From: a plasmid
Assembly: GCF_988243305.1 (NCBI RefSeq)
Contig: NZ_OZ547137.1
Direction: 5' to 3' (one strand)
Length of the DNA: 64,000 bases
Shown here one piece after another: positions 9,001 to 12,000 of the stretch. How positions within the stretch are numbered: the first letter of the stretch is position 1; the number at the start of each line of letters is the position of its first letter. The position numbers are program-made.

Positions 9001-12000
9001 AGTGAAAAGTTAATGAAAACACTCGATGAACTGAACCAGTCGGGAAAAGGGAAAGTGTGGTTTGCGGGGCGAGGAACCGCCCCTGAATGGCAAATGAAAC
9101 AGGAAATGCTATCGCCTTCGTATACAACACAATAGACTGAGATCCCCATTGCTTCATTCTGATATATCAGAATAATTTTTTCATTTTAAGACGCACATCA
9201 TTCATTGCCTCCTGCACCGAATCAGTAGCAGAAGGAGGCATTTTTTCAGCAGATTGCGAAGCACCGAGTTCAGTCAACACAGCTCTGATATCGGCCTGAG
9301 AAGGCTTCCATCCAGTCGTCTGACTGAGTAAGGTTACAACCTGATCTGCTGAAAACTCCTCGCTCAAAATGGCAGTCAGCAATACAGGCAGGCGAGGATC
9401 AAGTTGGTGTAACGCCATTCCAGAAATAAATGCATTCCGGAACAGCTCACCACGCTCAGAACGCGGAACGGACTCTATCGCTTCCAAAGTTTGAAAGTCT
9501 GCAGCTTTTTCCGGATGCAGATAAAGTGTGTATTTTTTCCTTTTCCGTTCATCGTCCACAATATTACTCCTCTTTGAAAGCCGCGATAGCTTCAACCAGT
9601 GCTGTCTGTGGCGACTCCATCATCACTACTTTTTGCCCAAGATGGTGCCATGCCGTTTTTATCGAATCATAGATCAACGGGGCCCCACCACCGACAACAT
9701 AAACACGATTCACATGATGGAAATCACCGAGCTCATTGACTACTTGCTCCCCCAAACTGGCAATAGCCCCCTCAATGGTATTAAGGACCAGATCAGTTTT
9801 TGTTTCGTCATTTATAACCTGCCGAACAAAGTCCGGGTCATTACGACGTTTAATCAATTCATCTGCAACGAGGAAACTGGTATCACTGGATGCCATGCGC
9901 AATGCACTCATTGCAGCTTTCGTAACTGAAGACACACCAATGCCAGAATTACCATGAATGGCACTTACAGAGTCAAATTGACCAACGATAACACCAACAT
10001 CAAGCGTAGTGCCGCCAATATCAACTACCAGCGATTTTTCGAACTGACCAACTTTATCCACGACCAGACGAGAAAACACAGCTGGCAATGATTCAGGCAT
10101 CACATCAACGTGTTCAATGGTGAAAACATCGCCTTTATTAAGACGAATCGGCCTCATTAAATTCTCAATTTTACGCTGAATGTTGAGTTCATTTTTTTGA
10201 CACTCTTTCGTATAGAACTCACTGATAGGCAAAGTCACAGTCAATGATACAGGCTGAGGCGCTAATCCACTATTCAGTAAAGCGTGATGCACAGCTAACA
10301 GGTTAACATCCGTATATTGATACTCAATATGAGTCGTAAGAATAGATTGGTTGCTAACTTCATCATACGTGTATTTTTTACCATCCAGTTCATAGTTAAA
10401 TGTCTGGCGAATTCCTAACCCGTCAACCTTCCATCCATGACGAAATGAGTTTTGCGACAACGACTTACAGATTTCCCCATTATCATTCCATGCCAACTTG
10501 ATTGTTGTTGAACCATCATCGCAGTATACGTTCATCTATAGCCCCTTAAATACTCAATCTGAGTAAATCATTGTTTCTGGTTGCAAGGTAATACTCAATT
10601 TGAGCACCATCATAGTTATGAAATCACAAAACACAAGTATTATTTATTACATCACATGACACACTTCATATTTCATACTTCATAAATATGAACATATATT
10701 GACACCTCAGGTTACCGTGTCAAAATATCATCATACTTCACACATCACATTTATGAGGTTGCAATGATTACTGTAGTTGGTGGGAACAAAGGTGGTTCAG
10801 GGAAAACTACCATTGCATCAAACCTGGCTATTGCTCTCGCAAATAAAGGAAGGGAAGTCTGCCTGTTAAACGGAGATCTACAACGAACAGCCGCAAAACA
10901 TCATGCGGAACGAGAAGCTGCAGGACTGTTACCAGCAATAACCCTTGTTGAGAAATTTGATAACCTGACACAAACACTACAGGCTCTGAATGAAAAGTTC
11001 GATGATGTAATAGTGGATGTCGCAGGAAGAAACTCAAAGGAATTCATAACGAGTGGAGTTGTCGCACATCAAATAATTGCGCCACTACAGTGTTCTCAAC
11101 CAGATCTGGATACTCTTACAGAACTAGAACAACAGATAGACGCAATGCGTAACCTTAACCCGGAACTTAAGGTTTATTGTTTACAAAGTATGGCAACAAC
11201 CAATCCGGTTTTGAGGGGAAATGAGAGAAAAGAATTCCTTGAATATCTTGAAGAATTCCCAACAATTCAAGTCCTTGATTCAGTTATTTGTTTCAGAAAA
11301 GTCTATCGCGATTGCATGAGCAACGGCACCGGTGTAGTAGAAACGAACAATACAGCAGCCAAAGCAGAAATTGAACATTTAATGAATGAGGTATTTGGCC
11401 CATGGTGAAGAAACCCAGCCAGCAAGCATTAAACAGAGCTGCAGTTACGGTAGAACAAGCAGAGGCTCTGGCTCAGCGCCTTGCGGATAAACCATACGGC
11501 GCGCCGGAAAAACCCGAACCAGAAAAACAATGTCGGACGACAATCTCTCTTGGTGAAAGCATGCTTGTCACAATAGAAGATCTGGCATTGAGGAATAAAC
11601 GCAATGGTAAAGATCCAAAAAATGTAAGTGCCATCGTCAGAGTAGCCCTTGAGCAATACTTAAAAACACTAACGTAATAATCAATAAGTTATTACTTATG
11701 AAATCACACTTGTGAATTCATACTGTTTAAGCACCCTTGCATACAAGAGATCACATATTGCAGTGGTCTCTTTTTTTACAGAATAAATCACAATTCATAA
11801 TTATGATTTATGAATTATGCGTGTCTGTTTTTCAGCATTGTGACCGCATCGGACTCAGGCATCGAAAACTGCACCCGGTGCCGTGCAGCCACATCCAGCG
11901 CAAACACCTTCGTGTAGACCTCCGTTGAGCTGATGGACTTATGCCCCATTAGGCTCTGCAGGACCTTCAGTGGTATACCGGCATACAGCATGTGCATCGC

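Follow-up and report, generated by a model that had tools for sequence, protein, structure and literature searches.

A double partition locus of the pB171 type, very probably a working copy, on an IncF-like plasmid

The double par locus of the E. coli EPEC plasmid pB171 is reportedly the one described by Ebersbach and Gerdes in 2001 and by Ringgaard et al. in 2007. In pB171 the genes of par1 (parM and parR, encoding proteins of 323 and 130 aa) and of par2 (parA and parB, 214 and 91 aa) lie on either side of a common centromere of about 200 bp, and a second centromere lies 3′ of parB. The ParR site of pB171 consists, according to the literature, of a pair of 10-bp direct repeats lying upstream of parM. 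ParA oscillation and equal plasmid spacing were described for par2, and the pB171 ParB is classed as a ribbon-helix-helix (RHH) protein. In the parMRC systems of R1 and R100, too, the gene of an actin-like ParM is followed downstream by that of ParR, and the centromere, which overlaps the parM promoter, lies upstream of parM. The parC of R1 holds ten 11-bp repeats flanking the promoter, and we know of no adjoining parAB in R1 that shares this centromere. Delta/omega of pSM19035 (inc18) and ParF/ParG of TP228 each pair a small Walker-type ATPase with a small RHH protein whose N-terminus is flexible. The omega-type centromere is built from unspaced 7-bp units (WATCACW in the literature), which occur in both orientations and double as operators.

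We analysed a 64-kb stretch of plasmid DNA (the window), in which the original prediction had placed a pB171-like double partition locus at 9167-11814, with a type II and a type Ib system divergent from a shared repeat region. Judging from the sequence, we put the probability that this is a pB171-type locus and a working copy on an IncF-like plasmid at about 0.93. The ORF list and the sequence both confirmed the predicted coordinates, with parR and parM on the minus strand and parA and parB diverging from them on the plus strand. Gene order, orientation and protein lengths are the same as in pB171, and all four reading frames are intact. The AT-rich gap between the operons measures exactly the 228 bp that had been claimed (10536-10763; 32% GC compared to 49% in the whole window).

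The par1 operon consists of parM (stbA; 9564-10535, minus strand), encoding a 323-aa actin-like ATPase, and parR (stbB; 9167-9559, minus strand), encoding a 130-aa RHH adaptor that binds the centromere. For parR we use the GTG start at 9559, which has an AGGAG 7 nt upstream; the same gene limits are annotated in the near-identical plasmid CP056358.1. A longer, mechanically called parR ORF (9167-9595, 142 aa, TTG start) was rejected, since it overlaps parM and both the CP056358.1 annotation and the crystallised ParR in PDB 2JD3 favour the GTG start. ParR is identical to 2JD3, which is the ParR of pB171 (PMC3074162), in 129 of 130 residues; residue 104 is Val in pB171 and Ala in the window. The Pfam family Plasmid_stab_B matches the 129/130-identical ParR of near-identical loci, and StbA_N/ParM_N match their 323-aa ParM. 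In the NCBIfam search nothing was found for ParR, and ParM gave only a sub-threshold hit to PRTRC_D. ParM aligned over residues 2-295 to structures of R1 ParM (1MWK and others; E = 3.9e-76). The actin-fold ATPase, the gene of a small adaptor downstream of it and the ParR repeats upstream of parM place par1 in type II (ParMRC).

The par2 operon comprises parA (10764-11408, plus strand) and parB (11402-11677, plus strand), which overlap by 7 nt. ParA is a small Walker-type ATPase of 214 aa. It has a deviant Walker A motif (KGGSGKT, residues 9-15 of 214; starting at residue 2 of the fold) and no N-terminal DNA-binding domain, and a length of about 200 aa together with these features is typical of type Ib. 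ParA matched the NCBIfam profile ParA_partition with E = 6.7e-34 (117 bits, under the curated cutoff of 180 bits) and structures of ParF and ParA with E values of about 1e-7 (ParF of TP228, 1.2e-7). ParB is a 91-aa centromere-binding protein for which an RHH fold is tentatively assigned to the C-terminal part. This assignment is consistent with a weak match of residues 45-88 to Pfam RHH_1 (i-E 0.0038) and with the name CopG family given to the protein by database sources. The PDB search with ParB returned no solved ParB structure, only non-significant alignments to adenylate cyclase and to CopG (the best, E = 0.64), and the NCBIfam profile search gave nothing for this protein.

Likeness to pB171 was measured through ParR, the database entry for ParA, the parC2 primers and the ParR repeats, and the correspondence with the published repeat numbering is thus indirect. 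For ParA and ParB the link to the pB171 proteins is likewise indirect, and it is weaker for ParB. The ParA sequence is exactly that of UniRef100 Q0H055, which is listed as pB171 ParA in a 2026 paper (PMC13245405), where W1WW55 is listed as pB171 ParB. The 90%-identity cluster of our ParB includes a partial protein named 'Orf70 protein'; our guess is that this member is W1WW55 and that the name follows the pB171 ORF numbering. The annealing parts of two pB171-derived parC2 primers (FS35 and FS36; PMC4270457, S2 Text) match the window at 39/39 (11660-11698, plus strand) and 31/31 bases (11809-11839, minus strand), and the AscI site used for a parB swap in published pB171 work is present at 11498. 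The window was compared over 2664 bp with ten loci that encode exactly the 2JD3 ParR: identity is 99.55-99.74%, there is no indel, and the divergent operons around one gap were seen in all ten.

The strong match of ParM to its R1 counterpart could also be expected if the locus merely resembled that of pB171, that is, if an R1-type parMRC lay beside an unrelated small ParA operon with a different centromere specificity. This is extremely improbable: the single substitution in ParR, the ParA entry and the 70/70 primer bases all lead to pB171, and the two 10-bp ParR repeats described below fit pB171 and not the 11-bp repeats that R1 ParR needs. The likeness to the pB171 par locus that had been predicted was borne out. 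The plasmids as such differ, since the window plasmid has genes for aggregative-adherence fimbriae where EPEC plasmids carry bundle-forming pilus (bfp) genes. No match to the double par locus was found in the first 50 kb of pMAR7 (NC_010862).

The 228-bp gap corresponds to parC1, the centromere and promoter region shared by both operons, and contains the ParR repeats, heptads and promoter candidates. Two 10-bp direct repeats (AATACTCAAT, 10549-10558 and 10590-10599) lie 41 bp apart. The ParR site proximal to parM (10549-10563) has this repeat within the palindrome TACTCA-N3-TGAGTA (repeat families D7 and I25), and the distal site (10590-10604) reads AATACTCAATTTGAG. In a locus with 73% identity (L013, see below) the proximal site is kept as ATACTCAAATTGAG, and the two sites are 40 bp apart. 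The best consensus match in the region is a candidate parAB promoter, P2 (10699-10726, plus strand; TTGACA, 16-nt spacer, TG-CAAAAT), with 10 of 12 positions and an extended -10 TG, on consensus match alone. The consensus scan of parC1 gave no promoter on the parM strand; relaxed rules gave two weak 8/12 candidates for parM, on which we do not rely, and the ParR sites bracket the better of them. One SNP was observed at 10695, 4 bp upstream of the candidate -35, with T in the window and C in all 11 compared loci.

The "short iterated motifs" of the original prediction turned out to be unspaced 7-bp units, NWTCAYA in either orientation, at numbers matched in none of 2000 shuffles. In parC1 we counted 12 copies of the core TCAYA/TRTGA, against a mean of 3.7 and a maximum of 10 in the shuffles (0/2000 reach 12); the stretch 11678-11830 has 9, against a mean of 1.9 and a maximum of 7 (0/2000 reach 9). 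The units of a cluster follow one another at exactly 7 bp, in mixed orientations, and in the whole window runs of at least two cores at this spacing are confined to five clusters, at 10610, 10666, 10731, 11697 and 11788. Putative ParB array A (10608-10693) comprises 12 unspaced units in one register, eight with exact cores (10610, 10617, 10624, 10652, 10666, 10673, 10680, 10687) and four with 4/5 of the core. Putative cluster C (10729-10758) has four exact units (cores at 10731, 10738, 10745 and 10752) and sits between the candidate P2 -10 and the ribosome-binding site of parA. It is likely the P2 operator; the promoter positions, like the choice of heptads that would act as operators, are read from position only. 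At 10694, directly after array A, a thirteenth unit reads ATATA in the window and ACATA in 11/11 compared loci, and the SNP at 10695 thus weakens one heptad beside the candidate parA promoter.

The common parC1 allele has 17 units with at least 4/5 of the core. This fits the 17 repeats known for pB171 parC1, while the 18 repeats of pB171 parC2 do not fit the 11 units counted here; neither number was used as evidence. Among 12 near-identical loci the Y positions vary at 5 of 21 sites and the core positions at 1 of 84 (p = 0.001), and the heptad cores are under visible constraint. A dense patch of TCACA motifs at 45821-45875 was considered as a third ParB site and rejected, as its spacing is 11, 8, 11 and 20 bp and not 7 bp.

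The units resemble those of omega: AATCACA, an exact omega unit, is present three times, and where omega has its 'C' the motif here also permits T. The units are grouped into clusters of 3-4 plus one array of 12-13 and, unlike in the omega and ParFG systems, a type II system shares one of the two centromeres. ParB showed no similarity to omega or ParG in the PDB search, even at E values up to 10. The likeness to omega is confined to the grammar of the sites, ParB not being detectably homologous to omega.

The original prediction had also noted a second repeat cluster following parB. Its presence was confirmed; its end was not, as the repeats run slightly past 11814. This second region of the ParB-binding type holds nine putative heptad cores in 11697-11813 and lies within parC2, for which we adopt the limits of the published pB171 PCR fragment (11660-11839). 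Putative cluster D (11690-11724) is located directly 3′ of the parB stop and has four exact units (cores at 11697, 11704, 11711 and 11718) and one 4/5 unit. Putative cluster E (11786-11820) is likewise made of four exact units (cores at 11788, 11795, 11802 and 11809) and one 4/5 unit and forms a palindrome (inverted repeat I9); its final units touch or overlap an integrase gene's stop codon at 11815. Between the two clusters the terminator scan predicted an intrinsic terminator of parAB (11745-11779, plus strand) with a 10-bp stem, an 8-nt loop and a T run, and one TCACA core (11751) is part of the stem.

The placement of the repeats bears on whether they could serve only as operators for autoregulation of the two divergent operons and not as centromeres. 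The position of cluster C, which has the candidate -10 of parA on one side and the ribosome-binding site on the other, and the ParR sites around the weak parM promoter candidate would agree with such a function, as would data from pUTI89, where deletion of parB de-represses both parA (up 128-fold) and stbA (up 16-fold). But parC2 is located downstream of the operon, around a terminator, where no promoter needs control, and published pB171 constructs take parC1 and parC2 as cis sites required for par2 function. In RHH-type partition systems, as the literature on omega describes, the same sites are used as operator and centromere, and therefore the two roles are not alternatives. A purely regulatory function is thus very improbable, and we retain the view that parC1 and parC2 are centromeres of a pB171-type locus.

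Placed on the gene content, the identity of the pB171 components and the repeat architecture and conservation observed here, the binding, filament, ATPase and repression steps known from the literature on pB171 and pUTI89 suggest the following mechanism. In par1, ParR dimers would bind the two 10-bp repeats beside parM, and the resulting complex would capture the ends of ATP-dependent ParM filaments, which push sister plasmids apart. In par2, RHH dimers of ParB would coat the heptad arrays in parC1 and parC2, and these complexes would stimulate the ATPase of nucleoid-bound ParA, by which plasmids would be moved and evenly spaced over the nucleoid. The same protein-DNA complexes would double as operators, and ParB would also damp par1 because parC1 is shared.

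The locus is widespread. With an identity of at least 98.4%, it is found in about 990 of 72,556 PLSDB plasmids; 992 PLSDB plasmids have this type of parAB, and 982 have the whole locus. The original prediction that two segregation systems sharing one centromere are uncommon applies to the design, but not to this element. E. coli UM146 and RS218 carry plasmids of about 114 kb, which we infer to be pUTI89-like and which are 99.7% identical over the 2.8 kb of the locus. pUTI89 and related ExPEC plasmids have the same stbAB/parAB locus with scattered SNPs only, most of them in parC1; ParB-dependent repression of both operons was measured in pUTI89, and all four qPCR primers of that study match the window exactly.

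This conservation also has to be weighed against the possibility that the locus is decaying or inactive and kept by hitch-hiking, while another system elsewhere segregates the plasmid. A deletion of about 100 bp disrupts the adjacent umuC and demonstrates some decay nearby, the parC1 SNP is absent from the 11 compared loci, and in plasmids of this IncF type several replicons and toxin-antitoxin modules contribute to maintenance as well. Decay is nevertheless hard to reconcile with four intact reading frames, with 12 near-identical loci that vary at only 12 sites across 2279 coding bp, with parAB being at least 99% identical in 985 of the 992 plasmids, and with the visible constraint on the heptad cores. 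We regard it as very improbable, on a par with a purely regulatory function of the repeats, and a working copy remains our reading.

The locus was thus correctly identified but is ordinary, because around 990 sequenced plasmids hold near-unchanged copies. Experimental dissection of the system goes back to 2001, and this already known element therefore opens no new question. The value for annotation is modest: public annotations call these genes 'AAA family ATPase' and 'hypothetical protein', and the genes, the two centromeres and each putative protein-binding unit can now be given exact coordinates. This identifies the machinery for active segregation on a large IncF virulence plasmid. Small but concrete by-products are the heptad-level map, which is backed by the layout kept in a 73%-identical locus and by the polymorphism patterns, the parallel to the omega grammar and an orphan distal half of parC2 in plasmids without parAB.

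A more distant relative is found in Enterobacter hormaechei (NZ_CP133858.1, L013), where a divergent double par locus with 73% nucleotide identity has the same gene neighbourhood (umuDC, parR, parM, parC1, parA, parB, integrase), heptad clusters at equivalent places and two ParR palindromes at a distance of 40 bp. Its cluster C is near-identical and located at the same position (3703-3724), and a 4-unit cluster at 4665-4686 is the counterpart of cluster D. Its parC2 has only this proximal cluster and lacks the distal one, and the terminator at the same position differs, its hairpin being GGCCGCATTTGCGGCC with TTTT after it.

The PLSDB plasmids with the distal half of parC2 (11741-11822; terminator and four heptads) outnumber those with parAB by about 500. 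In two such plasmids that were examined, both ColBM-type IncF (L014 and L017), this half with its cluster E lies beside a resD-like integrase gene and parAB is missing. Such an orphan half may not be an inert remnant and could act as an orphan centromere that borrows or titrates the ParB of a co-resident par2 plasmid, although we consider this unlikely; if true, incompatibility or joint inheritance of IncF plasmids would be affected. The same pressure could be reflected in the high polymorphism of parC1 relative to the genes.

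Two divergent operons were seen in the ORF list and the sequence, parM-parR on the minus strand and parA-parB on the plus strand. The parM gene (9564–10535) encodes 323 aa, and parR (9167–9559, 130 aa) begins 4 nt past its stop codon. On the other strand parA (10764–11408, 214 aa) and parB (11402–11677, 91 aa) overlap by 7 nt. A gap of exactly 228 bp (parC1) separates parM from parA and has a GC content of 32%, compared to a window mean of 49%; in the 137 bp 3′ of parB the GC content is 28%. The original prediction of ParM and ParR on one strand, a 214-aa ParA with a 91-aa partner on the other, and an AT-rich gap of 228 bp between them was accurate. 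For parR, a mechanical call of a 142-aa ORF from a TTG at 9595, overlapping parM, was rejected. We placed the start at the GTG at 9559, since the crystallised protein starts there, an AGGAG lies 7 nt upstream, and the annotation of the near-identical plasmid CP056358.1 gives the same limits.

The proteins and the non-coding parts both point to the par1/par2 locus of pB171. ParR is identical in 129 of 130 residues to PDB entry 2JD3, which PMC3074162 identifies as ParR of pB171, a ribbon-helix-helix protein that dimerises through a helical domain at its C-terminus. Over 2664 bp, ten loci encoding the exact 2JD3 ParR share 99.55–99.74% identity with the window, without a gap and with the same flanking genes. 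The UniRef name for the exact ParA sequence is Q0H055, given as pB171 ParA in PMC13245405. The primers FS35 and FS36 were used to amplify parC2, the repeat region after parB, from pGE2, a mini-R1 plasmid carrying pB171 par2 (PMC4270457, S2 Text); their annealing parts match the window at 11660–11698 and 11809–11839 with 0 mismatches. The window also has, at 11498, the AscI site through which parB was exchanged in PMC4270457. Judged by its sequence, the element is the pB171 double par locus and no new variant of it: the observation made at the outset is confirmed, and its interpretation as pB171 par1/par2 is supported by ParR, ParA and the parC2 primers.

ParM matches the R1 ParM structures over residues 2–295 (E 3.9e-76). 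ParA carries a deviant Walker A motif (KGGSGKT, residues 9–15) at its very N-terminus and therefore has no extra DNA-binding domain. It matches ParF of TP228 (E 1.2e-7) and NCBIfam ParA_partition (E 6.7e-34), the latter at 117 bits and so below the curated cutoff of 180 bits. For ParB a PDB search found no solved relative. Pfam RHH_1 matched weakly (residues 45–88, i-E 0.0038) and an alignment to CopG was non-significant; database sources call the protein CopG family, and pB171 ParB is classed as ribbon-helix-helix in the literature.

The short iterated motifs noticed earlier resolve into unspaced 7-bp units. The most over-represented k-mers in parC1 and parC2 were TCATA/TATGA and TCACA/TGTGA, with 21 copies versus about 1.4 expected from the window composition. 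Mapping of the core TCAYA/TRTGA gave 12 occurrences in parC1 and 9 in parC2, where the core makes up the second repeat cluster predicted after parB; none of 2000 dinucleotide-preserving shuffles per region reached either count. Within clusters the core spacing is exactly 7 bp, and with flanks the putative ParB unit reads NWTCAYA. Array A in parC1 (10608–10693) comprises 12 consecutive units in one register, 8 with exact cores and 4 with 4/5 cores, while cluster C (10729–10758) has 4 exact units in a second register just upstream of the parA ribosome-binding site. In parC2, a proximal cluster (11690–11724; 4 exact units and one 4/5 unit) lies directly 3′ of parB, a lone core at 11751 is inside a terminator stem, and a palindromic distal cluster (11786–11820; 4 exact units and one 4/5 unit) abuts or overlaps the stop codon of an integrase gene. 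In the whole 64-kb window only five clusters have at least two cores at 7-bp spacing, all of them in parC1 or parC2. Four ATTCACA-like motifs at 45821–45875, in the divergent intergenic region between the genes for a DeoR/GlpR regulator and a KpsF/GutQ isomerase, are spaced by 11, 8, 11 and 20 bp; being off the 7-bp register, they probably form an unrelated operator.

The putative ParR sites, AATACTCAATCTGAG (10549) and AATACTCAATTTGAG (10590), are identical over the first 10 bp, lie 41 bp apart and are also palindromic (TACTCA-N3-TGAGTA). Two things set the locus apart from R1 parMRC, its ParR site and its fusion to a type Ib system. The grammar of the ParB sites bears a striking resemblance to that of the omega sites of pSM19035: both consist of unspaced 7-bp units in both orientations, which act as operator and centromere for omega and would do so for ParB. 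For omega the literature gives the unit as WATCACW, and AATCACA was found three times in the locus. PDB searches detected no protein similarity between ParB and omega, so we regard the likeness as a functional parallel and not as membership.

The best parA promoter match in a consensus scan is a candidate at 10699–10726 (TTGACA, 16-nt spacer, TG-CAAAAT). With this promoter, transcription would start near cluster C, which makes cluster C the likely parA operator. On the parM strand no promoter in parC1 passed the consensus scan; relaxed rules yielded one candidate between the ParR sites and a second that overlaps the first ParB units, both of which we infer from sequence only. Cross-regulation is documented for pUTI89, where deletion of parB raised parA 128-fold and stbA (parM) 16-fold; all four qPCR primers of that study match the window exactly. 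The anatomy supports the published model, from which the steps of the mechanism are taken. In par1, ParR on its two sites would form a complex that caps ParM filaments, and the filaments would push plasmids apart. In par2, ParB dimers would coat the heptad arrays of both parC regions and act on ParA bound to the nucleoid, which would position plasmids at equal spacing.

Variation was compared in the window and 11 near-identical loci. Of 36 variable sites, 24 are located in parC1 and parC2 (10536–10763 and 11678–11814, 365 bp together) versus 12 in 2279 coding bp, i.e., 6.6% versus 0.5% of positions (Fisher p = 3e-13). Among the 21 exact units in these 12 loci, 5 of 21 Y positions and 1 of 84 core positions were variable (p = 0.001); the drifting position is thus the degenerate one of the motif. 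Position 10695 is a T in the window but a C in each of the 11 compared loci, including the otherwise identical CP056358.1. This T, 4 bp 5′ of the candidate parA −35 element, turns ACATA into ATATA in unit 13 of array A and so weakens the unit. A more distant relative, on an Enterobacter hormaechei MOBP plasmid (NZ_CP133858.1, 2132–4760), has the whole double par locus in the same gene neighbourhood at 73% nucleotide identity. It keeps two ParR palindromes, 40 bp apart, and heptad clusters in the corresponding places of parC1, the pre-parA cluster being nearly identical. Its parC2 has the proximal cluster only: four units adjoin the end of parB, and the terminator that comes next is a different one. 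This locus is a useful outgroup to define the essential repeats.

The double par locus is already known and very common. In PLSDB, 982 plasmids cover at least 80% of the 2.8-kb query, with an identity of at least 98.4% among the matches listed for this group. The parAB genes alone gave 992 records (985 at 99% identity or more), mostly conjugative plasmids, from Escherichia (759), Salmonella (148), Klebsiella (67) and Shigella (16). An index of the assembly collection lists the exact pB171 ParR in about 6000 blocks. The best match to the locus (1 mismatch in 2664 bp) is an IncFIA/FIB/FII plasmid of a wastewater E. coli isolate with aggregative-adherence fimbria genes, largely, not wholly, collinear with the window.

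The terminator and last heptad cluster (11741–11822) occur in 1509 PLSDB plasmids, exceeding the number with parAB by about 500. Two such plasmids without parAB were examined, both ColBM-type (IncFIB/FIC); in these (L014, 3001–3082; L017, 3501–3582) distal parC2 is flanked by the colicin M immunity gene on one side and a resD-like integrase gene on the other, and parAB is absent from the vicinity. The segment appears to be an orphan half of a centromere that stayed behind when par gave way to the colicin module. A Salmonella Infantis plasmid has the distal half at the same 95% identity, with the full locus present. Immediately beyond parC2, at 11815–13150, come the gene for a 269-aa resD-like tyrosine recombinase and the ccdB/ccdA pair, as in F-like plasmids. 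Since the final ParB heptads extend into the recombinase stop codon, no spacer separates the two modules. On the other side, umuC beside parR (8007–9135) is a pseudogene broken by a deletion: about 100 bp are absent near 8866 relative to related plasmids, and residues 1–289 and 324–423 of an intact 423-aa UmuC are matched in different frames. The closest plasmid, CP056358.1, also has this deletion, and no umuC is annotated there.
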